A DNA stretch of 38,472 bases from contig CAYSSL010000002.1 in NCBI GenBank assembly GCA_964433715.1, positions 1 to 38,472 of the forward strand. The letters run 5' to 3'. Positions 11,391 through 23,207 of this stretch are shown in pieces. A program made the translations under genes and the position numbers. Positions within the stretch are counted from its first letter, which is position 1; the number at the start of each line of letters is the position of its first letter. Under the pieces are notes generated by a model. It worked only from the letters and a program-made list of their open reading frames with translations, ran no database searches and was not told the DNA's origin. This DNA comes from an uncultured Candidatus Saccharibacteria bacterium (GTDB lineage Bacteria > Patescibacteriota > Minisyncoccia > Phycocordibacterales > XYD1-FULL-46-19).

Positions 11391-13415
11391 TTGGAAAAAA
11401 TTAATCCACGATCTAATTTTAAGGCTAGCCTTAGTGGTATTACTTCTAGGGGGTATTTTGTGTGTGTTTTGGCAATCATTACCCTGATTATTGGGGTAAG
11501 CTATTTTGTTTTCAATGGTAATTTTAGTAATTATAATCAGTTTTTAAGCCCAAAATCTTTTTCGGTTGTAAAAAAGTTTCCGGATTTTAGTAATTATAGT
11601 GGCTGGAGAGATATAAAATTAGATTCACAAGATCCTTCTTCAATTTGGATCTTGGGTGGTGGAATACTCCACTATGATCTCAAGAAAAATGTGGTGAATA
11701 AAATTTTGGCAGGAGATGATGGAGTTCAGGATGTGCCGATATCAATTGTGCATATTGGCGATAATTTATTCTATAGTTTTCAGGGTGGAATAGAAAAAAT
11801 AAACTTAAAAAATGGTAAGACTAAATTGTATGGACAAAAAAATGGTTTGGTGTCCGAAAGTAATGTTTATCTCCATCTGGATCCTTATGATAACGATGTT
11901 ATCTGGATAGGAACTTTTAAGGGATTAAGTAAATTTAGTATTTCCAAAGAAACTTTTACAAATTTCACCGATCAAATTGGTACCAATTCAACTCATTTTG
12001 GTATTGATGACAACGTTAGAGTGGGTAAGGATTATGTTTGGGTGGTAGTATCTGCCAATGCCTATAGTGAGGGTGGTATTGCGCGTTATGATAAGCGCCA
12101 AAAAGAATGGAAAGCTTGGGGTCCAGAATATTTTGGCAGTGTCGGTCGCGTTGATATTATGGCGTTTGATATTGATGAGGAAAAAGCTTTTGCTTTTGTT
12201 TCTGATTCAGATAACATTTTTGAATATGATCCAGTGACCAATTCTTGGCAAACTATTTATGATGGTGATCGGATGGTGTCAAATTTTTCTTTTTTAGTTT
12301 TTGCTAATAATCGAGTTTATTTTGCCGAAGATGATGTAAAAAACTCAAAAATGATGAATATTAAGTATGTTGATTTAAAAACTAATAAATCTTTAATTTG
12401 GCGCAATTTACCACGTGGTAATTTTGATGTTGATAAATCTGAAAAGCGAGCGATTATCTCATTTTATTCGTATGAGCGTAATTTGTCGGATCATAAATTG
12501 GGAGTAATTGATTTTAAAGATTTATCAACCACTGATTATTTAGTGGACATAAAGGATGACAATCGTCTCATATTTAACGAATCTTTCAAAGATGTTGTAT
12601 TGTTTGAGACTCGTGGTTTTTTATATCTTTACAATAAAAAAAGTAATATCGTAAACAAGATTCCCGAAATCAATTTAGATAGTAACTCTTTGTTCGCTGA
12701 GATGGTTGATGACAAGCTCATTATTTTTAATCTAGATATTCAAGAAATTGGATGGATGGGCGATAAACCAAATACTATTTATGTGATTGATCCTATTAGT
12801 TTAGAGGTTGAGAATAAAGCCGTTATTAATTCTGGTGAATATGATAATATTTCTTACGATAAAGAAATAAAGGAGTTAATCCTTAGTAAAATTCAAGGTC
12901 CAAATAAAATTATTATGTACCACATATCTTCAACTAAGGTCTTAGAGGCTGTGGGTGATAATAAGCTAGATAACGATGAACTGATGATTGTACCCGAAGC
13001 CGAACATTCTAAGTATTATGGCGTGGGTAAAAATTCTCTAGATGTTTTACTTGATGATGGCGTTACGGTGAGAGCCCCGATGTATGTTAATGGTGACACC
13101 TTCCAACTTGTGGTTACTAAAGATGGGATAAATTCCTCATCCTCGCCAATCATGGTTGCTCCCGCTCGTATTAGTCCTTTTGGTTATCCATCAAGTATTG
13201 ATATTAAAACAATAGATTTAGATGATAAAAATTCTTCGGTGGTTTGGGTTGGGACAGATCGTGGTCTAGTTCGTTATGATATTAATAATCGTGAACAACG
13301 ACTTTTTACAATTGAGGATGGTCTAATTGGTGATGATATATTAAAGATTGATGCTGGTGAGCGGTTTATTATTAAACACACTGTTGGGGTCTATGTTTAC
13401 GATATAAAGGATTAG
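11391..13415 (+). CDS. membrane-anchored beta-propeller-like protein with two-component-regulator-propeller (Reg_prop) type repeats
   Basis: The anchor is YFVCVLAIITLIIGVSYFVF. Two repeats fit the pattern GL....V.....D....W.GT..GL: GLVSESNVYLHLDPYDNDVIWIGTFKGLSKF and VWVGTDRGLVRYDINNREQRLFTIEDGLIGDDILKI. The start is uncertain. It could be TTG at 11391, or GTG at 11460, which has AGGGGG 6 nt upstream. Confidence 0.6.
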   Translation: MEKINPRSNFKASLSGITSRGYFVCVLAIITLIIGVSYFVFNGNFSNYNQFLSPKSFSVVKKFPDFSNYSGWRDIKLDSQDPSSIWILGGGILHYDLKKNVVNKILAGDDGVQDVPISIVHIGDNLFYSFQGGIEKINLKNGKTKLYGQKNGLVSESNVYLHLDPYDNDVIWIGTFKGLSKFSISKETFTNFTDQIGTNSTHFGIDDNVRVGKDYVWVVVSANAYSEGGIARYDKRQKEWKAWGPEYFGSVGRVDIMAFDIDEEKAFAFVSDSDNIFEYDPVTNSWQTIYDGDRMVSNFSFLVFANNRVYFAEDDVKNSKMMNIKYVDLKTNKSLIWRNLPRGNFDVDKSEKRAIISFYSYERNLSDHKLGVIDFKDLSTTDYLVDIKDDNRLIFNESFKDVVLFETRGFLYLYNKKSNIVNKIPEINLDSNSLFAEMVDDKLIIFNLDIQEIGWMGDKPNTIYVIDPISLEVENKAVINSGEYDNISYDKEIKELILSKIQGPNKIIMYHISSTKVLEAVGDNKLDNDELMIVPEAEHSKYYGVGKNSLDVLLDDGVTVRAPMYVNGDTFQLVVTKDGINSSSSPIMVAPARISPFGYPSSIDIKTIDLDDKNSSVVWVGTDRGLVRYDINNREQRLFTIEDGLIGDDILKIDAGERFIIKHTVGVYVYDIKD

Positions 13416-14257: not shown

Positions 14258-14744
14258 TTTCGTTTATTTTATGTTCATGTAAATCGGTCGCGTGATCAAC
14301 AAACAAGATACCATCAAGGTGGTCAATTTCATGTTGAAAAATTTGAGCTATTAGACCGGAGCCATTCCATGTAAAAGGGTTACCTTGTTGGTCTAGGGCT
14401 TTGACGGAGGCTTTATCCGCTCTCTTGGTTTTACCATAGATCCAGCGTACGGAAAGACAGCCCTCATCTAGCTCTGATTTTTTCTTAGATAATTTAATGA
14501 TTTCTGGATTAATAAAGACGGCATCTTCTTCGCCATCTTTAAAAATTTTTTTGGATACGACAAAAATACGCAAACCTACTCCAATTTGGGGGGCCGCGAT
14601 GGCTACACCATCTTCACAGCTGGCCAAGGACTCAGACATTTCCTTGATTACTTTTTCTATCTTAACTGAGCCGATGTCTGACAGTGGAACAGTTTTTGCT
14701 TTCTGGCGCAAAACTGGGTCATTTTGCTGAACTATTTTCTTCAT
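14244..14744 (-). CDS. def: peptide deformylase
   Basis: All three deformylase motifs are present: GVAIAAPQIG, EGCLS and QHEIDHLDG. Confidence 0.95.
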   Translation of the reverse strand: MKKIVQQNDPVLRQKAKTVPLSDIGSVKIEKVIKEMSESLASCEDGVAIAAPQIGVGLRIFVVSKKIFKDGEEDAVFINPEIIKLSKKKSELDEGCLSVRWIYGKTKRADKASVKALDQQGNPFTWNGSGLIAQIFQHEIDHLDGILFVDHATDLHEHKINESESN

Positions 14745-14765
14745 TTACGCCACTATATCATAATT

Positions 14766-16682
14766 TTATAAAATATCAGCTGGATCAATTTGGACACTGA
14801 AAGTTGGAGGTAGGGCGCGTAAGACATCTCGCAATTCGTCTATTGGCCAAGAATTTAGGGGGATTCTTATTAGGAGGTGGGCAGAATATTTTATACCGTC
14901 ACTATCAAAGGCTGGGTAAATAGCTGGTTCATACTTTTCTAATAGTCTAGCCAGCTTGGATAGGTCGCGCTTTACTGCTTCCTCGTTGCCGCTGCGACTA
15001 ACTTTGATTAGATTAGAAAAAGGAGGATAGTTGTTTTTGTGACGATCTTCTAGTTCGTGTCGATAAAATTCTAAAATATTGCCATTTTCCAGAAAATTGA
15101 ATATTTTTTCGTCAACTAGGCGAGTTTGAATAATAAATCTTTCACTGGCAATCTCTGCTAGTTGGGTGAGTAAACGCATAACTCGTTCATTGGAACGAAA
15201 ACCGGGAATAGAGAACATATGGTCAAGACTAGCAATGCCGACTAGAGGTAGAGGTTCTAATATATATCTTATAGCCATTTCTGTTCCAATTAAAATTGCC
15301 CCAGGGGTTTTGGCAAATTCGGTAGCTATTTTAATCGCTTGGCCACTAGTGGTGGCATGATCTGAGTCTAAAATAAACACTGGAGCTTCTGGGATAATTT
15401 CACTTATAGTCTCTGAAACTTTCTCAGTTCCTACGCCCAGTGGTGAAAGTTTCCAACTATTGCAAGAATTGCAGCGATCGGTAACTTTTTCTCTTTGTCC
15501 ACACCGATGACAAAGGTAGATGCGGTTTCTGCCTTTGCTGTTGTGCAAAACTAGTGGTTCGTTGCAGTGACCACAAACGACCATGGCATCACAATCGTTA
15601 CATACTGTGGTGGGGGCGAGACCTCGTCGTCCAGCCAAAATAAAAGAATTCTTTTTATGGCTGGTAGCCAATCGTAACCTGTCAGCCAACTCTGGCCCTA
15701 TAACTGTAAATTTTTTATTTTCAGTAGAATTGGGGTCGGTTTTTTTCTTGGTATTTATTACTTCAATTTTTGCTTCACTTTGTAGTCTGTATTTTAAGGG
15801 TGAGGCTGCTAATAATATTTTACGGTTGTATTTTTCAATCATTTCCAAAGGTAAAAATGTATCACCAATAATAAGTCGATGATGACCTATTTCGGCTAAA
15901 TTTTCAGCAAATTTTCGGCCATCAATATGTGGTCTGGTGGGAGAAAAATAGTCTTCGCTGGCCGCCTTTTCTATGATAATAGTTTGACAATTTGCCTTAG
16001 GAAAAGATAAAAAGAGGGGAGTAGTGATAATAAGTTCCGAGTGGTCGCTAGACATAGACTGTTTCCACTTGTTTATCACCTCCTTTTCAGGTGTTTTAGA
16101 GTGTAAAACTATAGTATATGACTCAATCCCTTTACCTAAAACGGGGGCTAATTTCTCGGCTTCAATCGCGGTTGGTACCACAACAAAGATTGATTGATTA
16201 CGGGCAAATATTTCGCGAATTAGGCTGCGATAAAATGAAATACGCTCCTCTAGAGAATCTTGCAAAATCAATTTATCAATAATTGTTCCGCCGGCCGGTA
16301 TTTTTTCCTGATTAGTGATTTTTAATTTAGGCCATTTTTGTTTACTTAAAGAATCTAAAACTGCCTTGGGGGTGGAAAATTTTAAAGTCTGACCAAGAGT
16401 GGCGGCAAAATAATCGCTAGTTTTTTCAGCTGCGCTAATAAATTGAGGTAAAAAGAAACTGGGGTGAATAACAGCTTCTACTTTTTTAAGACTAAAATCG
16501 GATGATTTTAAATAAGCCTTTTGTTGGTCGGCTTGGGTAGAGGATAAAACCAAGGCCGTGGTTATACGTCCGCGAACTGGAACTGACACTAAACTGCCGA
16601 CCGACAAGTCGGATTTTGAGAAGTAGCTTAGATTCTCTTTAAAAATACCTTTTTCAATTGGGGCTACCGTTGTAATATACAT
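14766..16682 (-). CDS. priA: primosomal protein N' (PriA) homologue with degenerate helicase ATPase motifs
   Basis: The PriA-like N-terminus is LSVGSLVSVPVRGRITTALVL. The Cys-rich zinc region is CNDCDAMVVCGHCNEPLVLH...LCHRCGQREKVTDRCNSCNS...LGVGTEKV. The priA-def-fmt order matches the usual synteny. Walker A, DExH and motif VI are not recognisable (see findings). Confidence 0.8.
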   Translation of the reverse strand: MYITTVAPIEKGIFKENLSYFSKSDLSVGSLVSVPVRGRITTALVLSSTQADQQKAYLKSSDFSLKKVEAVIHPSFFLPQFISAAEKTSDYFAATLGQTLKFSTPKAVLDSLSKQKWPKLKITNQEKIPAGGTIIDKLILQDSLEERISFYRSLIREIFARNQSIFVVVPTAIEAEKLAPVLGKGIESYTIVLHSKTPEKEVINKWKQSMSSDHSELIITTPLFLSFPKANCQTIIIEKAASEDYFSPTRPHIDGRKFAENLAEIGHHRLIIGDTFLPLEMIEKYNRKILLAASPLKYRLQSEAKIEVINTKKKTDPNSTENKKFTVIGPELADRLRLATSHKKNSFILAGRRGLAPTTVCNDCDAMVVCGHCNEPLVLHNSKGRNRIYLCHRCGQREKVTDRCNSCNSWKLSPLGVGTEKVSETISEIIPEAPVFILDSDHATTSGQAIKIATEFAKTPGAILIGTEMAIRYILEPLPLVGIASLDHMFSIPGFRSNERVMRLLTQLAEIASERFIIQTRLVDEKIFNFLENGNILEFYRHELEDRHKNNYPPFSNLIKVSRSGNEEAVKRDLSKLARLLEKYEPAIYPAFDSDGIKYSAHLLIRIPLNSWPIDELRDVLRALPPTFSVQIDPADIL

Positions 16683-16817
16683 ACTCTTAAGCTAATTTTT
16701 GTCCAGTATACTGTAATCTGTCAACTTATCCACTTACTGTGTAAAATACGCTTATTTTCAGGTTTAATTTGCTTTTAAAATAGAATATAATTATAGGTGA
16801 ACCAAAGTGTCTGTACT

Positions 16818-18245
16818 ATGGATTTTTCTCCTATATCACCATTATATTCGTCTAAAGATTATCCAGAAGGATCTGATCTTTATGGTCGCACCGAACATCT
16901 AGAAGATGATTTGGCATCTATACCTTGTCGTAGCCTAGATAAAATTGGCCGATTTGTTGTTTTGCCGGCAATAAAAGAATCTCATCAAAATTATTTAGTA
17001 CCAATTGCTGGTCTGATTTTGGCGCTGACATTGCTCAGTACTACCGAGATGTTGTCGGATAAACTTGCGATACTTAATCTCTCTCGTCAAAAGGCGGAGG
17101 GTCATCTATCTTTAAACCTTCCTAAAATTTCTCTACCATTTGAAAGTGACGAACTTTCGGCTTCTTTGTCTGTTTGGGCTAAAGGTTTCGATGCTGGCTG
17201 GCTAGAAACCAAGGGCGCTTGGAAAACATTTTGGGTAGAAGAAGTGTTACCTCTTTCTCCCGCTAGAAAGAAGATAGAAATTAGTCACAGATTGCCAACT
17301 GGCGCTGGACTCGCTTTAGTGGAAAGAAGTTTATCTTCGCCTTGGCCTCAGACGGTGGCCACTATTAGTGACCTGCGGACAGATATTAGGTCGGTGGTCG
17401 GACAAATAAATTATTTCAGTCAGCGTCCGGTTTGGGCTATAAGTGACGCTTTATTGTTGGCTGATCATAATATTACTCTAGCGGTAGAAACTGGTCAGAT
17501 AGTTACCGAAAGATTTAGTAGGGGGGTTAGCGAACTTGCTTTGGTTTCAACAAAGGTTGAATTAGCTAGCCGACATCTTTTAGATAAAAATGTGGCTTTG
17601 GTTGGGTCAGCTACTTTGAGTGTTAAACAAGCTTCTCTATTGGCGACAGCCCAGCTGGCCGCTACCGATCTTTTTGTGCGTAATACTACTTCAGATTTTG
17701 TATGGGTGGCCGACTTTGCCGACAAAGCTTTAATGGCCGCCGCCGCCGAGAGTTTGTCGGGTGCCGATCAAGCCTTCCAAGCTATTTGGTACGGCGTGCC
17801 TCGTCTGGTTATTGCTGGTTATGAGAAAGTGGTGGGGATAATGGCTGAGTTTTGGTTTAATGTTAAATCAAACTGGCTCAATTTCTTTTCTGGTAATTCG
17901 GCAGACACCAGCAACTTAGCTGGTGACGCTTTGCGTGAGCAAATAAGGCAAGAAGTTTTAGATGAATTGGAGCTGGAATTTTCTGGTGTCTTTGATCGCT
18001 TGCGCGAAGGACAACCTACGGTGATTCAGGAGCCGATAGGAGGTAAAAGTGGTGTGGTGGTTGTACCTGAAGGTAAAACGCCGGAAAGTAGAGCGGTGAT
18101 TCAGGGGCGGCTAGAACAAATGTTTTCTGATCCAGTAAAAGTACGCTTTGATCAGGGTGGAAACTCTGGTGTTATTACACCAGAGTTTCGTGAGCAACCG
18201 GGTGATAATTATATATTTCTTCTAACTCCTATTCAGGATAAATAG
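16818..18245 (+). CDS. hypothetical single-pass membrane protein, first gene of the four-gene envelope cluster
   Basis: A long ORF with one TM (LVPIAGLILALTLLSTT) about 60 residues in. The following region is Ala/Leu-rich and probably helical, and the C-terminal roughly 90 residues look beta-rich. I recognise no family. The start is either ATG at 16818 or GTG at 16797. TATAAT at 16786-16791 favours the ATG. Confidence 0.55.
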   Translation: MDFSPISPLYSSKDYPEGSDLYGRTEHLEDDLASIPCRSLDKIGRFVVLPAIKESHQNYLVPIAGLILALTLLSTTEMLSDKLAILNLSRQKAEGHLSLNLPKISLPFESDELSASLSVWAKGFDAGWLETKGAWKTFWVEEVLPLSPARKKIEISHRLPTGAGLALVERSLSSPWPQTVATISDLRTDIRSVVGQINYFSQRPVWAISDALLLADHNITLAVETGQIVTERFSRGVSELALVSTKVELASRHLLDKNVALVGSATLSVKQASLLATAQLAATDLFVRNTTSDFVWVADFADKALMAAAAESLSGADQAFQAIWYGVPRLVIAGYEKVVGIMAEFWFNVKSNWLNFFSGNSADTSNLAGDALREQIRQEVLDELELEFSGVFDRLREGQPTVIQEPIGGKSGVVVVPEGKTPESRAVIQGRLEQMFSDPVKVRFDQGGNSGVITPEFREQPGDNYIFLLTPIQDK

Positions 18246-18248
18246 TTT

Positions 18249-19136
18249 ATGCGGTTTTTTTATTTTTTTACACTATTTTTTGTTGCTTTATTTTTTTTAA
18301 ACACATCGTTAGCTATTGCTCAGGCTAGCCCCTTCTTTGCTGTGTCTCCCACTAAAGCTGAGTTGTGGCTGGCACCCGGTGAGACAGGTGATAAGGTTAT
18401 TACCATTGCCAATAATTTAGGAGGGGCCGCTCGGTTCACAATTACCGTTGAAGATTATGTAGCTTCGGGAAACGGCCTAAAATTATTAGGCCAAGAAGAT
18501 GGTGTTTATTCATTAAAATATTACATTCAAACTCCCCAGTCTTTTGTCTTGGGTCAAGGTGAAAAATATGAATTGCCAATAACTATTAGTTTGCCAGCTA
18601 ATGCCCCAATTAATAGTCTTCATGCGGCGGTGGTGGTGGAGGGGCAAAGGTTAAATGAAATTAGGGGAGCGGCGCGAGTCTCGTCACGTATTGCCGTGCC
18701 GTTTTTTATTCGGGTAGAAGGTGAGGCAAAAGAACAAGGTAAATTACAAAAGTTTGCTCTCACCGGTGGTCCCATTCAGATATTGGGTAATAATTTAAAC
18801 GCTTATATTTCTTTTAAAAACTTTGGCACTACCTATCTCAACCCATATGGTTATCTGGAAATTAAAAACCTGCTATCACAAAAGGTGATGCGAGTCCCTG
18901 TTGATCCGTGGTTTATTTTGCCCAAATCTACCAGAACTAATGATATTGAATTGTCCCGTTTAAATTTATCGGGTCTTTACTCAATTACTTTATATCAAAA
19001 TCGTGGCTATGGAGATTTGATAGACAGTGATAGAATTTTTGGCCTGTTTATATCAAGATTAATCTTCGGCCTGCTGTCGTTGTTGGCTGTTGTCATAGTG
19101 ATGATGGTTATTATGTTAAAATTCAAGAATAAATGA
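18249..19136 (+). CDS. hypothetical cell-surface protein with a signal peptide, beta-sandwich-like region and C-terminal TM anchor (DUF916/DUF3324-like architecture)
   Basis: The signal peptide is MRFFYFFTLFFVALFFLNTSLAIAQA. FAVSPTKAELWLAPGETGDKVITIANN...FTITVEDY...ELPITISLPANAP fits Ig-like strand patterns. The C-terminal anchor is IFGLLSLLAVVIVMMVIMLKFKNK. The stop overlaps the next gene's start as ATGA. Confidence 0.6.
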   Translation: MRFFYFFTLFFVALFFLNTSLAIAQASPFFAVSPTKAELWLAPGETGDKVITIANNLGGAARFTITVEDYVASGNGLKLLGQEDGVYSLKYYIQTPQSFVLGQGEKYELPITISLPANAPINSLHAAVVVEGQRLNEIRGAARVSSRIAVPFFIRVEGEAKEQGKLQKFALTGGPIQILGNNLNAYISFKNFGTTYLNPYGYLEIKNLLSQKVMRVPVDPWFILPKSTRTNDIELSRLNLSGLYSITLYQNRGYGDLIDSDRIFGLFISRLIFGLLSLLAVVIVMMVIMLKFKNK

Positions 19137-19906
19137 AAAATCAATTAACCATTGTTCTAATTATTTTTCTTGGTTTATTGCCAATCGGCCGAGTGGCTTT
19201 GGCTTATGTTGCCGAGAGTAGTAATTACCGTCTGGAGTCTGACAGTATAAACTTTGGTGGGGGCGAAATGTCTAGTTCTGCTTCTTACAGCTTGAGTGAT
19301 ACCTTTGGTGAGGTGGGTACGGGTGAATCTTCTTCATCAAATTATAACCTTCATGCTGGTTATCGGGCTATGGAGGTGGGAGCAGGTGGAGCTGGGGTGG
19401 AGGCAATATCTTTATCATCTCCGTCCGACATTTCTTTGTCTGAAATATCTAGTTCTGATGGTGGTAGTAGTAGTGGTTCTGGAACATGGACAGTGGTAAC
19501 CACTAACGGCGATGGTTATGAATTAACTGTTCGGTCGGGAACGGAGCCGGCTCTAAAGAGTAACAATAGCCAGTTTTCTGATTATGCCCCAAGTGGTTCA
19601 GCTCCTGATTTTTCTTGGCTGACGGACCTAGATGGAGCGATTTTTGGTTTTACAGCTGAAGGAAATGATATTGCTACGCGCTATAAAGATAACACTAGTG
19701 CTTGTGGCACTGGTTCAAGTGATACGACTGATGCTTGTTGGGATGGTTTGTCGACCTCTGATCGTGCCGTCGCTTCTCGTTCCAGCGCCACTTCAGGTAG
19801 TGGTTCTGATACGGTTATGAAATTTAAGGCTGAAATAGGTAGTGACTCCGATTTAGCTGCGGGGAGTTATGAGGCTAATATAATAGTAACAGCTACTACT
19901 TTATAA
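19133..19906 (+). CDS. hypothetical secreted Ser/Gly/Thr-rich protein
   Basis: The signal peptide is MKNQLTIVLIIFLGLLPIGRVALA. An S-x-[NS]-Y-x-L motif occurs three times (SSNYRLESD, SASYSLSD, SSNYNLHAGY). The C-terminus AGSYEANIIVTATTL resembles terminal strands of fibre or pilin-type beta proteins. Confidence 0.6.
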   Translation: MKNQLTIVLIIFLGLLPIGRVALAYVAESSNYRLESDSINFGGGEMSSSASYSLSDTFGEVGTGESSSSNYNLHAGYRAMEVGAGGAGVEAISLSSPSDISLSEISSSDGGSSSGSGTWTVVTTNGDGYELTVRSGTEPALKSNNSQFSDYAPSGSAPDFSWLTDLDGAIFGFTAEGNDIATRYKDNTSACGTGSSDTTDACWDGLSTSDRAVASRSSATSGSGSDTVMKFKAEIGSDSDLAAGSYEANIIVTATTL

Positions 19907-19913
19907 TTTATCG

Positions 19914-21812
19914 GTGAAAAAATATTCAAAAAAATTTTATTTAAGTAGTCTCGTATTTTTGATGCTGCCATCGGTGGTTTTAGCGGTGGCCAGTACTTCC
20001 AGTACGCGGGTTTCGGTGGACGTGGAGGGGGTAATTGTTACTTACCCTATAGAGGGCTGTACCGATCCTAATGCCGAAAATTATTCTAGTCAGGCCGAGG
20101 TTGATAATGGTTCGTGTGTTAATGTGGCGCCCGCCACCAATTTTTTGGCGATCTATAACAGTAGTAGTAAAACAGTTAATTTAACTTGGTCTAACCCCTC
20201 TAATAAGGCCTATTTTGATGCGGTGCGTATTGTCCGTAAAGAGGGGTCAATACCAGTAAGCCCTACCGATGGTACGGTGGTCTATGATGGTGTGGGAGAG
20301 CAGGCCTCTGATTCGGATGTTGATTTAGATACCAGATACTACTATGCCTTATTTGTCCGTTCTACTTCTGGGCGTTATTTGTCACCACTTATTGCCTCAA
20401 TTTTTACCGACGAAGAAACCTGTGAAGACCGTGACGACTGTGACCCTTTTGTCACCTTTGGTCACGCTACGTCTTCTGACCCTTTAATTAGGTCACTTAA
20501 ATTGGGAGATTTTATTTTTAGTCAGCCTTATGAAAGATTGCAATATTTTAGTGAAGGGGGAAAGGTAATAATAAAAGGTAATAAACAATTTACAGTTAGT
20601 CTGCCTTACCACAAGGTGCCAACAGTGTTAAAGACTATCGGTATTACTCTCATTGACCCCCTCAATCCTCAGAAAAGTTTTTCTTTTTTGTTGCGGGCAA
20701 ATTCAGACAAAACTATGTATACCGCTACGGTTGCTCCTCTTGGTCGAACCGGTGTCTATAAAATGAATATTTATGTGATGAATTTCCGCGACCAGACAAT
20801 GAAAAAAATCAGTGGAGATTTGGTGGTGGCAACAGCTGGGGCAATACCGGTAGATATTGATACGGCAGCTACTCTGGGTAAGGGACTAGCTATTAGTACC
20901 GGCTTAGCAGCCATTGCTATTCAAACTTTTGGCATTACTTCACATTTGGCTTCGTTACTAGATATCTATTTGGCTATTTTACGTTTGATTGGAGCTTTAC
21001 TTGGTTTTTTGGGTATAAAAAAGAAAAACAAACCTTGGGGCACGGTTTACGATTCTGTTACCAAGAGACCTATTGACCCAGCCTATGTCTCAATTATTCC
21101 GGTTGCCGGAAAAGAAGAACAAGCCTCGGCTATTACTGATATTGACGGTCGTTATGGTTTCTTTTTGCCGGCTGGTTCTTATATTATTAAAGCCGGTAAA
21201 ACTCACTATGCTTTTCCGTCTCGTACGTTGTATGGTAAAGATCGAGACGAGCTTTATGCCAATCTATATTTTGGTGAACAGGTTGAAGTAAAAGGGGAAG
21301 AAGTGATAAACAAAAATATTCCTTTAGATCCAATTGGTTTTGACTGGAATGAATTTGCTAAATCTAAGTCCGAATTTTTCAAAATATATTCTCAAAAAGA
21401 ATTAAGAAGGAGTCGTATTTTCTCTCTCCTATATACCTTTGGTTTTGTTATTTCTATTGGCAGTCTGATTTTAACTCCTACTTGGTTTGATGTCTTTACA
21501 ATTATTATCTATATTGTCTTATTTGGTTTTCAAAAATATTGGGCCGCTCGCCATCGTCCAGTTCAAGTTAAAAATAAACAAACAGGTGAACCGTTGCCGT
21601 ATTCTATTATTCGTTTTTATTTACCTAGTACTAACACCGAGGTGCGATCGGTGGTTGCCGACGAGCTAGGTCGTTTTTATGCTTTACTCCGACCTGAAAC
21701 TTATTATTATACCGTGGACGAGAAAGAGGCTGACGGATCTTACCGTCGTATCTTTACTTCTTCTCCCGTTGAGTTTTCTCGTGGGGTGATGAGGGGCAAT
21801 ATTGAAGTTTAA
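19914..21812 (+). CDS. large envelope protein with a signal peptide, FN3-like domain, TM segments and two carboxypeptidase-regulatory-like (CarboxypepD_reg) domains
   Basis: A GTG start gives the signal peptide MKKYSKKFYLSSLVFLMLPSVVLAVA. A small Cys motif is GCTDPNAENYSSQAEVDNGSC. The FN3-like stretch is NLTWSNPSNKAYFDAVRIVRKEGSIPVSPTDGTVVYDG...YYYALF. The two CarboxypepD_reg-like stretches are GTVYDSVTKRPIDPAYVSIIPV...TDIDGRYGFFLPAGSYIIKA and VKNKQTGEPLPYSIIRFY...ADELGRFYALLRPETYYYTV. Hydrophobic helices separate these domains. Confidence 0.6.
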   Translation: MKKYSKKFYLSSLVFLMLPSVVLAVASTSSTRVSVDVEGVIVTYPIEGCTDPNAENYSSQAEVDNGSCVNVAPATNFLAIYNSSSKTVNLTWSNPSNKAYFDAVRIVRKEGSIPVSPTDGTVVYDGVGEQASDSDVDLDTRYYYALFVRSTSGRYLSPLIASIFTDEETCEDRDDCDPFVTFGHATSSDPLIRSLKLGDFIFSQPYERLQYFSEGGKVIIKGNKQFTVSLPYHKVPTVLKTIGITLIDPLNPQKSFSFLLRANSDKTMYTATVAPLGRTGVYKMNIYVMNFRDQTMKKISGDLVVATAGAIPVDIDTAATLGKGLAISTGLAAIAIQTFGITSHLASLLDIYLAILRLIGALLGFLGIKKKNKPWGTVYDSVTKRPIDPAYVSIIPVAGKEEQASAITDIDGRYGFFLPAGSYIIKAGKTHYAFPSRTLYGKDRDELYANLYFGEQVEVKGEEVINKNIPLDPIGFDWNEFAKSKSEFFKIYSQKELRRSRIFSLLYTFGFVISIGSLILTPTWFDVFTIIIYIVLFGFQKYWAARHRPVQVKNKQTGEPLPYSIIRFYLPSTNTEVRSVVADELGRFYALLRPETYYYTVDEKEADGSYRRIFTSSPVEFSRGVMRGNIEV

Positions 21813-21860
21813 TCGGTTTTTGGTCATTTTTTTCTAGTTGTCACTGGGGTTATTTTCAAT

Positions 21861-21889
21861 TTGCTCATAGTTCGTTAAACCAGTACAAT
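21861..21889 (+). promoter_or_regulatory. candidate sigma70-type promoter for murA
   Basis: TTGCTC (21861-21866), a 17-nt spacer, then TACAAT (21884-21889). It lies 25 nt upstream of the murA ATG. Confidence 0.35.
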
Positions 21890-21914
21890 AAGCCCGTAAT
21901 AGCTAAAATTTATT

Positions 21915-23207
21915 ATGTCTGAACAACAAAAATTCGTTATTCAAGGTCTGGGGGGTAAGAGAGTATTAAAAGGTAAAATTCCTACACCGGGGGCTAAAAA
22001 TGCCATATTAAAAGTTTTGGCCGCTTCTATTTTATTTAAAGATGAACTGACGGTAGAAAATGTTCCAGAAATAGAAGATGTGACCAGAATGATAGAGCTT
22101 CTAGAGGATTTGGGAATTATTGTAGAGAGAAAAGGGCCAAATTCTTATCGCTTGTTGACATCTGATATTCGGACCAGTGAAATCTCTCCCGAAATATCTA
22201 AAAGATTGCGTTCTTCTATTGTGTTGACTGGTCCGTTGGTGGGGCGACTGGGTGAGGTAACTTTTCCTCATCCGGGGGGTTGTGTTATTGGTAAGCGTCC
22301 AATTGATTTTTTTATTGAAGCTTTTCAAATTTTAGGCGCAGATGTTAAAGACACCGGCGGTGGTTATCATATTAAGGTTGGACGAGGAGGGTTGAAGGGG
22401 TCGGAAATATTTTTCAAAAATCAAAGCGTAACTGCCACCGAAGATTTTTTAATGGCAGCGGTATTGGCTAAAGGCACGACGGTGCTAAAAAATTGTGCGA
22501 TGGAGCCAGAAATAGAGGATTTGGGTAGATTTTTAAACAGTTGTGGTGCTAAGATAGACGGTCTTGGTACTCCGACGATTGTTGTTCAGGGTACTGGTCT
22601 TTTGTCTGGGAAAGGTCAAACCTATACCACCATGCCCGATCGTATTGCCGCTGGTAGTTTTATTATTTTGGGCGCTTTGGCTGGAGAAGATTTAGAAGTG
22701 ACAAATTGTGAACCTAATCATTTAGATTCTCTTTTACACACTTTAAAATTAGTCGGTGTAAATTTAAAGATTGGGAAAAACTATGTTCATATTAAGGGTA
22801 GACAACAGAAATTTAAAGCGGTTGACCTGAAGACTCATGAATATCCGGGTTTCCCGACCGACCTTCAAGCACCAATGTCGGTACTTCTTACTCAAGCTGA
22901 AGGCCAGAGCTTTTTATTTGAAACTATTTTTGAGGGGCGATTGTCTTATCTTGAAACATTAGCCAGAATGGGTGCAGATACACGCGTTTTAGATGCCCAC
23001 CGAGCCCTTGTCCATGGGCCAAAACGCTTGCTGGGCAAGGAGGTGGATAGTCCAGATCTGCGAGCGGGTTTAGCTTATGTTTTGGCGGGTATCATTGCGA
23101 GGGGTAAGACCGTAGTCCATAATATCTATTATATAGATCGGGGTTATGAACATATCGATGATCACCTGAGAAAGATTGGGGTTGATATAAAGCGGGTTAA
23201 TATTTAA
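21915..23207 (+). CDS. murA: UDP-N-acetylglucosamine 1-carboxyvinyltransferase
   Basis: GAKNAILKVLAASIL is present. The active-site loop HPGGCVIGKRPID retains the catalytic Cys. FPTDLQAP and YIDRGYE are present. Length is 430 aa. Confidence 0.95.
   Translation: MSEQQKFVIQGLGGKRVLKGKIPTPGAKNAILKVLAASILFKDELTVENVPEIEDVTRMIELLEDLGIIVERKGPNSYRLLTSDIRTSEISPEISKRLRSSIVLTGPLVGRLGEVTFPHPGGCVIGKRPIDFFIEAFQILGADVKDTGGGYHIKVGRGGLKGSEIFFKNQSVTATEDFLMAAVLAKGTTVLKNCAMEPEIEDLGRFLNSCGAKIDGLGTPTIVVQGTGLLSGKGQTYTTMPDRIAAGSFIILGALAGEDLEVTNCEPNHLDSLLHTLKLVGVNLKIGKNYVHIKGRQQKFKAVDLKTHEYPGFPTDLQAPMSVLLTQAEGQSFLFETIFEGRLSYLETLARMGADTRVLDAHRALVHGPKRLLGKEVDSPDLRAGLAYVLAGIIARGKTVVHNIYYIDRGYEHIDDHLRKIGVDIKRVNI

Follow-up and report, generated by a model that had tools for sequence, protein, structure and literature searches.

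Bacteria of the Candidate Phyla Radiation (CPR), or Patescibacteria, are mostly uncultured episymbionts. The first structurally defined CPR-specific appendage is the Pam pilus of Candidatus Mycosynbacter amalyticus (Saccharimonadia), for which PamA and PamB filaments were solved by cryo-electron microscopy (cryo-EM) (Troman et al., bioRxiv 2026, PMC13278184). It has been proposed that this pilus forms without an usher by donor-strand exchange, with PamA, PamB and PamE as pilins, PamC and PamD as membrane-anchored chaperones, PamR as the anchor and PamT as the tip, where it was placed by modelling; PamR combines an N-terminal strand and FnIII-like domains with a transmembrane (TM) anchor (PMC13278184). 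The associated survey queried PamA and PamB, and the system was called CPR-exclusive (PMC13278184). The elr operon of Enterococcus faecalis also builds a pilus, whose WxL pilin ElrD uses donor-strand exchange to polymerise (Sleutel et al., bioRxiv 10.64898/2026.10.17.759780). In that system ElrC and ElrD are the WxL pilins, and cryo-EM and pull-downs identify ElrE (DUF916/DUF3324) as a membrane-anchored donor-strand chaperone; the tip, ElrA, consists of a payload and an acceptor domain and has no donor strand, and the base, the LPxTG terminator ElrB, has a donor strand and a tether and no acceptor domain (bioRxiv 10.64898/2026.10.17.759780). The WxL pilus system is said to be Bacillota-confined (bioRxiv 10.64898/2026.10.17.759780), and neither paper mentions the system of the other (PMC13278184; bioRxiv 10.64898/2026.10.17.759780). 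Here we analyse a cluster of four genes, A, B, C and D, on contig CAYSSL010000002.1 (assembly GCA_964433715.1, positions 1 to 38,472 of the forward strand; this whole 38,472-nt stretch is called the window), and compare it with both systems.

A-B-C-D is a genuine operon, conserved in relatives, and a pared-down version of a known type of system (Pam/WxL). It probably encodes a minimal, shaft-less surface fibre of the Pam or WxL/Elr type that is assembled by chaperone-guided donor-strand exchange. The four plus-strand open reading frames (ORFs) are A (16797-18245, 482 aa), B (18249-19136, 295 aa), C (19133-19906, 257 aa) and D (19914-21812, 632 aa), and direct reading of the junctions gives TAG-ttt-ATG between A and B (3-nt gap), an ATGA overlap of 4 nt between B and C, and TAA-tttatcg-GTG between C and D (7-nt gap). 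A previous sequence-only reading of the window had reported four co-directional genes with exactly this spacing, and had seen in them a candidate dedicated cell-surface complex, perhaps serving host attachment, of an organism that might belong to the CPR; the reading as a surface complex is supported and the CPR lineage has been borne out. Its outline of the products also holds: A is type II-anchored with an Ala/Leu-rich ectodomain (single TM segment at aa 67-85), B has a signal peptide, a beta-sandwich region and a TM helix at its C-terminus (the AlphaFold2 (AF2) model shows the helix and resolves the region into two beta-sandwich domains), C is an anchorless beta protein with a signal peptide and a Ser/Gly-rich stretch (in agreement with its AF2 model), and D has a signal peptide, an FN3-like domain, TM segments and two CarboxypepD_reg-like domains (Pfam at family level and a TM scan). 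The genes are no longer all unassignable, as that reading had called them, since B and C can now be placed in the Pam and WxL/Elr pilus systems through the two 2026 preprints; A is still without a family. Scans of the four window proteins against Pfam, NCBIfam and PADLOC matched only PamT (for C) and, weakly, CarbopepD_reg (for D).

In the proposed assembly pathway, B, C and D would be exported by Sec. B would stay in the membrane through its C-terminal helix and hold the incomplete immunoglobulin-like domain of C by a donated strand, for which aa 146-158 are the candidate. The amphipathic N-terminal strand of D would then replace the B strand in the groove of C, so that one C molecule is locked non-covalently on the FN3-containing ectodomain of D, which three TM segments would fix in the membrane. 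This would yield a short stalk, not a long pilus, with a triple SxNYx[LI] module of C at its far end. By analogy with Elr and Pam, we infer strand complementation and exchange, the order of C on D, the exposure and function of the module, and contact with a host; the assembly logic as a whole is an inferred but well supported one.

Gene B (18249-19136, plus strand) is identified as a membrane-anchored two-domain pilus chaperone from its AF2 model, Foldseek searches and family profiles. Its signal peptide is followed by beta domain 1 (aa 29-156), closed by the conserved strand at aa 146-158, by beta domain 2 (aa 164-268) and by the TM helix (aa 270-294), and the AF2 model has a predicted local distance difference test (pLDDT) of 90.5 and a predicted template-modelling score of 0.80. 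The top Foldseek hits of this model are the WxLIP structures 9i1y and 9i25 (E=2e-11, 255-257 aligned columns), followed by the chaperone-usher (CU) chaperones CfaA, CsuC, YadV, FimC and Caf1M (E=1e-8 to 4e-7) and DraB. The same relationship is found in profile searches of the PDB, where the B family profile matches E. faecium EfmWxLIP1 (9i1y, 9i25) at E=4.5e-7. The window B itself has no match in direct Pfam or NCBIfam scans; PF06030 (WxLIP_PGBD, formerly DUF916) is matched by 5 of 12 members of the B family, including the homologue at locus L005 (34.6 bits, gathering score 27.3), and one relative that clears this gathering score shares 34% identity with B (E=1e-44).

The B profile retrieves proteins of about 330 aa at E~1e-72, several of them named as Saccharimonadia, and two of the retrieved chaperone genes that were checked in their context (L006 and L007) lie inside true pam operons, with a PamT of 204-238 bits and three pilins that each pass NF058581. 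NCBIfam has no model for the Pam chaperone, and the identity of the Pam chaperones was established via this genomic context. In a database of 5.8 billion sequences, the single B sequence matches the pam-operon chaperone P0129 at E=1.4e-6. B is a homologue of the WxLIP (DUF916/DUF3324) and of the Pam-operon (PamC/D-type) chaperones. The likeness to DUF916 plus WxL (csc) loci that had been suggested from the letters alone is borne out for B, which is a true DUF916 homologue; C is not a WxL-domain protein. Separately, four T tracts of 6-8 nt (window 18255-18298) encode the Phe-rich signal peptide of B and are a possible slipped-strand switch for B and, via the ATGA overlap, for C.

Gene C (19133-19906, plus strand) encodes an anchorless, PamT-like tip subunit in which the signal peptide (aa 1-24) is followed by a triple-repeat module, then a Ser/Gly linker and lastly one pilin-like domain. 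Against the NCBIfam PamT model NF058579, its score of 39.9 bits (E=3e-10), from an alignment confined to model positions 3-127, falls far short of the cutoff of 240 bits; the model is matched by 57 of 58 members of the C family, all far below the cutoff. C nevertheless has the architecture of PamT, that is, a signal peptide, an N-terminal triple SxNYx[LVI] module and one pilin domain. The module (triple SxNYx[LI], 19208-19372, plus strand, aa 26-80) lies at the N-terminal end of mature C. It is portable, and its conservation is high, with columns that are on average 63% identical over 21 diverse members; the bona fide PamT of L007 has it too (BLASTP E=9e-5), and the C-terminal strand of that PamT resembles that of C. 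In the AF2 model of C, the module by itself has low confidence (pLDDT <50).

The pilin-like beta domain (19445-19903, plus strand, aa ~105-257) has a conserved Cys191-Cys202 pair and the C-terminal strand GSYEANIIVTATTL, is modelled by AF2 with pLDDT >94 (the very confident part of the model spans aa ~90-257), and is the presumed donor-strand acceptor. Its Foldseek neighbours are mostly CU pilins, together with TasA and CanA, none of them significant (best E=9e-3). Aligned by hhalign to the Pam pilins, the C family alone reaches 3.9%, and a 124-sequence profile of the C and X domains (X is described below) aligned to Pam pilin C-terminal domains (CTDs) reaches 84% (E=8e-6, 126-144 columns; 0.2% for the reversed control). 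Weak matches of 15-20 bits to NF058581 (cutoff 55 bits) fall exactly on the C orthologues of three relatives, with none in control genomes. A WxL domain was considered for C and rejected: there is no match to PF13731 or any other Pfam family, and the C profile finds no PDB match at E<=1 despite the long WxL chain in 9i25. A WxL motif is absent from 57 of 58 C family members, and a motif scan assigned none to A, B, C or D.

Gene D (19914-21812, plus strand) is the candidate membrane base and anchor, as indicated by Pfam matches of its family, the TM scan and the charges that flank its TM segments. From its N-terminus, D consists of a signal peptide, an N-terminal strand, a Cys-bracketed module, an FN3-like domain (aa ~75-165) and a beta domain (~185-305), followed by a TM segment (348-366), a CarboxypepD_reg-like domain (376-470), a TM hairpin (502-536) and a second CarboxypepD_reg-like domain (550-632). 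Across 19 D members, CarbopepD_reg_2 is matched by 14, CarboxypepD_reg by 10 (best E=6e-15) and fn3 by two; the window D itself has a weak CarboxypepD_reg-like match (E=0.009). The D ectodomain is homologous to an fn3 protein that lies downstream of C in distant relatives (E=6e-20). Charged residues border the TM segments, with KKKNK after 348-366 and RRSR before and RHRPVQVKNK after the hairpin, and by the positive-inside rule both CarboxypepD_reg-like (transthyretin-like) domains (window 20955-21812) would lie in the cytoplasm; domains of this type are not usually located there, and such a placement would permit coupling across the membrane.

The mature N-terminal strand of D (STSSTRVSVDVEGVIVTY; 19995-20048, plus strand) is amphipathic and is a candidate donor strand. 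Its family motif, [TS]-D-[SG]-x-x-V-x-[LI]-x-V, which precedes a Gly/Ser linker, is found in every unfused D of 20 loci fetched from relatives, and is missing from four fused D proteins, which carry the C module instead. Many relatives encode an additional protein, X, a paralogue of the domain of C without the module, and X has an N-terminal strand of the D type (for example AEDSVDVSLTVTAEISIS in X and ADTDSVDVSLVVN in D). Four alternating hydrophobics, counted by a strict pattern, are present in 39 of 75 D sequences and in 19 of 45 X sequences, compared with 3 of 77 C sequences. By the logic of Elr and Pam, C would be the tip (acceptor and no donor strand), X the shaft (both) and D the base (donor strand and anchor). 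C is assigned to the tip type because it has the N-terminal module of PamT, a pilin-like domain and no donor strand of the D/X type, and D to the base type because it has an N-terminal strand and linker as in X, no acceptor domain, and TM anchors, the layout proposed for PamR and ElrB. In relatives that carry X, with its C-type domain and D-type strand, X would polymerise between C and D and yield a longer fibre.

The co-occurrence of the four genes in relatives, on which the sequence-only reading had made its proposed complex depend, was observed. Among the 20 fetched loci the order is A-B-C-D in 14 (one further locus ends at the contig edge after C), A-X-B-C-D in two, and X-B-C-D or B-C-D in two. 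A further 80 species-level loci, chosen by C alone, gave X-B-C-D in 24 (plus three with two X copies), A-B-C-D in 20 (plus two), A-X-B-C-D in 10 and B-C-D in 11. In about 77 of these 80 loci B lies directly upstream of C, and D lies directly downstream wherever the contig continues. Relatives of C are present in at least 213 species-level genomes, and the records that bear them have titles that include Vogelbacteria, Nomurabacteria, Kaiserbacteria, Taylorbacteria, Lloydbacteria, Parcubacteria and Paceibacteria.

Natural fusions support the proposed order of assembly. At four loci (L033, L034, L039 and L040), A is followed by a D in which the C module replaces the N-terminal strand, with neither B nor the pilin domain at the locus, and neither the chaperone nor the pilin domain was found genome-wide in these four genomes (91-100% complete); genomes that have the pilin domain carry the chaperone adjacent to it. 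An exhaustive search with the module alone gave 1,329 representatives, and among the best 150 of these the module is joined to the pilin domain in 88, sits on D-type stalks in 13 (one a 2,220-aa protein), and is part of B::C fusions that keep the signal-peptide cleavage site of C in 11. These patterns are as the stalk model predicts, and suggest that B serves the pilin domain and that the pilin domain only attaches the module to D. The joint loss of B and the pilin domain in the module-D fusions implies that the functional connection of C is with D, any link to B being non-permanent, and the persistence of the module in four genomes without pilin domain or chaperone implies that its function is independent of a C-type groove. 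As to the B::C fusions themselves (P0269, P0260 and nine others), a chaperone with its TM helix is joined to a segment like the C signal peptide, the module and the pilin domain, and the retained cleavage site would allow signal peptidase to part the two halves after insertion.

These observations bear on a different explanation, in which the products form a static envelope-binding complex without strand exchange, of the kind originally suggested for WxL clusters, B tethering C to the membrane or wall and D and A being separate, co-regulated proteins. A 2023 study of DUF916/DUF3324 proteins describes binding of WxL domains and a link between bacterial and host surfaces (PMC10599100), PDB entry 9i25 shows a long WxL protein in complex with a WxLIP, and none of the Paceibacteria relatives has been seen to form filaments, all of which would fit such a complex. 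We nevertheless regard it as unlikely, as the later cryo-EM and pull-down work on Elr identified the DUF916 protein as a donor-strand chaperone, both D and X carry a conserved N-terminus that resembles a donor strand, and B and the pilin domain are lost together where the module is fused to D.

No polymerising shaft subunit, a role held by X in relatives and by PamA/B in Saccharimonadia, was found for the window locus. The genome that carries this locus (552,885 bp in 48 contigs, 88% complete) contains no match to the Pam pilin domain model NF058581, no two-domain pilin of the PamA/PamB/PamE type and no X, and C is its only pilin-like gene. The window system is read as shaft-less because X and the Pam pilin are missing from this genome. 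The same finding could be taken to mean that C is itself the major pilin and homopolymerises into a long pilus, with part of the module (e.g. SDSINF) as donor strand, B as chaperone and D as terminator. Besides C being the only candidate pilin, this would agree with the position of the module at the mature N-terminus, where a donor strand is expected, with its low AF2 confidence in isolation, as is usual for donor strands, and with the first repeat ending in I-x-F, like P12-P14 of the WxL donor-strand consensus. However, the module lacks the alternating hydrophobics seen in D and X, it is kept in the four genomes that have neither pilin domain nor chaperone, it also heads the 2,220-aa protein and the D-type stalks, and the Pam authors, in their model, put PamT at the tip, a protein that has this module as well. 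Polymerisation of C is consequently improbable in our judgement.

Several points weigh against the shaft-less stalk. The likeness of the C domain to the Pam pilin CTD is remote, as judged from sequence profiles, with scores below the NCBIfam cutoffs and a best Foldseek E of 9e-3, and the open acceptor groove in C is assumed. A shaft pilin could sit in the missing ~12% of the genome, which is spread over 48 contigs. Conservation within C is highest in the module, an unusual trait for a host-specific adhesin, and this high conservation may point to a conserved self-partner, which would fit better than a host-specific ligand. Finally, the model leaves gene A unexplained.

Gene A (plus strand) encodes a type II membrane protein, as seen from the TM scan and homologue alignments, with a cytoplasmic N-terminus, the TM segment at aa 67-85 and a variable, helical, Ala/Leu-rich ectodomain. 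Its ORF opens with GTG at 16797; the most likely start is ATG 16818 (coding region 16818-18245), because homologues of the same genus align from residue 8 and because of a TATAAT box (16786-16791, plus strand). This -10-like box was read directly in the divergent intergenic region between priA and A, 27 nt upstream of the probable start, and would set the start of the A transcript at or after GTG 16797, leaving a very short leader. A scan for promoter and terminator consensus sequences gave nothing above shuffled expectation and no strong internal terminators in 16500-22100 (5 found, 5.1 expected). The sole portion of A that is conserved beyond the genus is its C-terminal module of about 75 aa (18009-18245, plus strand), aligned as GVVVVP...FSDxVxVxFDxxGxSGVITPxF...YIFLLTPI.

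Of 41 relatives, 26 have A, and in each of them it directly precedes (X-)B-C-D or the fused D. Neither A nor its family has a Pfam, NCBIfam or PDB match. A hidden Markov model (HMM) of the module found nothing in the distant loci L002, L004, L005, L035 and L036 or in the true pam operons L006 and L007; judged by this search, neither distant relatives nor true pam operons have A. Two possible identities for A were rejected: it does not resemble X, the ~230-aa gene that lies upstream in distant relatives, and its C-terminal module is not a pilin-like attachment module of the kind that, by analogy with ElrA, might end giant adhesin-like proteins, as it is only ~75 aa long and the HMM finds none. 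A is a conserved, clade-specific accessory membrane protein outside the Pam and Elr paradigms.

The lineage that carries the locus is a Vogelbacteria-type group of Paceibacteria, within the CPR/Patescibacteria. Dozens of Paceibacteria-like contigs are labelled generically as 'uncultured Candidatus Saccharibacteria', and one short contig with a C homologue (L058, JAQVAJ010000411.1, 2,550 bp) is binned as 'Clostridia bacterium', probably through a binning error. Upstream of the cluster, priA (14766-16682) is divergent from A, which confirms the shared divergent region that had been described earlier. The other window genes are of the housekeeping kind (def, fmt, pyk, murA, two copies of mreB, mreC, genes for penicillin-binding proteins (PBPs), mraZ/rsmH and mur ligases), and Pfam gives no match at E<=0.01 for a 674-aa plus-strand ORF (11391-13415, TTG start). 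Given its place between priA and murA-mreB, the cluster might be read as serving cell-wall or morphogenesis functions unrelated to surface fibres, and it does adjoin murA, both mreB copies, mreC and the PBP genes. The linkage to murA and mreB is only local synteny, because X-B-C-D of distant relatives has other neighbours (gap, rpiB, rpe, tkt and a giant adhesin-like protein), and B and C have specific relatives in pilus systems, which makes this explanation highly improbable.

Other loci show further variation. In a genome of the same genus (G003:C6:13832-15292) an in-frame TAA interrupts the B match and the C match falls into two pieces (14709-14951 and 15065-15292), a pattern that suggests decay of the locus or assembly errors. 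Two genomes of the same order (G037:C12:82321-83145 and G039:C2:101632-102486) have a B-type chaperone without a C-family gene, and its partner there is probably a different pilin family. Giant proteins of 1,500-4,600 aa flank X-B-C-D in distant Paceibacteria (L002:1-6103, L004:1-6234 and L005:1-6067) as well as true pam operons (L006:12587-21005 and L007:12065-20933); those of L002 and L003 have a Peptidase_S74 match. These proteins correspond to the 'tail fibre-like protein' that the Pam paper links to pam operons, and none lies next to the window cluster.

Our results place a much simpler relative of Pam in a different and very large CPR class, the Paceibacteria, and the published survey based on PamA and PamB used queries that the window locus lacks. 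The natural variants (tip and base; tip, shaft and base; module-base fusion; chaperone-pilin fusions) amount to a ready-made genetic dissection of the assembly logic and yield predictions of the binding partner of each part. Through its clear homology to WxLIP/DUF916 proteins from enterococci and lactobacilli, B links two systems that have been described as confined to separate phyla. A broader and more tentative idea, which we hold to be possible rather than probable, is that the module is a portable tip device of Patescibacteria, possibly a contact element with a host or with a conserved envelope ligand, and that, taken with the homology of B and WxLIP, the Pam pili, WxL pili and stubs are branches of one ancient usher-less, single-membrane system. 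If so, the module would be mounted in three ways: fused directly to a membrane stalk, with no need for a chaperone; on a one-subunit donor-strand 'stub', as in the window; or on multi-subunit pili with shafts of X or PamA/B. A single ancient system would contradict both 2026 preprints, according to which the one is CPR-exclusive and the other Bacillota-confined.

Compared with the CU pili (Fim, Pap, Csu, CFA/I, Caf1), the window system shares the two-domain fold of the chaperone B, and CU pilins are the commonest fold neighbours of C. It differs in having no outer membrane, no usher and a membrane-anchored chaperone, and in the absence of detectable sequence similarity, the fold matches of C not being significant on their own; domain scans found no usher-like gene in the locus or the window.

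The differences from WxL/Elr are that C has no WxL domain and no PF13731 or PDB sequence match, that the locus lies outside Bacillota, and that anchoring would be through the TM segments of D itself rather than through LPxTG. A motif scan found no LPx[TSA]G in A, B, C or D, in line with the lack of a sortase signal noted earlier, although no search for a sortase gene in the genome was made. The two systems are alike in that B is a homologue of WxLIP/DUF916 in sequence and structure, with the same C-terminal membrane helix, and in that both appear to follow the same logic of parts, a tip made of payload and acceptor and a base made of donor strand and tether.

Relative to Pam, the window genome has no two-domain PamA/B/E pilin, C scores 39.9 bits against the 240-bit PamT cutoff, D is polytopic, 632 aa long and equipped with two CarboxypepD_reg-like domains where PamR is small, RbmA-like and has one helix, the cluster contains the extra conserved gene A, and the lineage is Paceibacteria/Vogelbacteria rather than Saccharimonadia. 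In both cases, however, the host is a CPR bacterium and there is no usher; B shares Sec export, two domains and a C-terminal TM helix with the Pam chaperones, and its family includes those of pam operons; C carries the N-terminal triple SxNYx[LVI] module of PamT, and its pilin-like domain may be remotely similar to the Pam pilin CTD; and D, like PamR, has an N-terminal strand, an FN3-like domain and a TM anchor.

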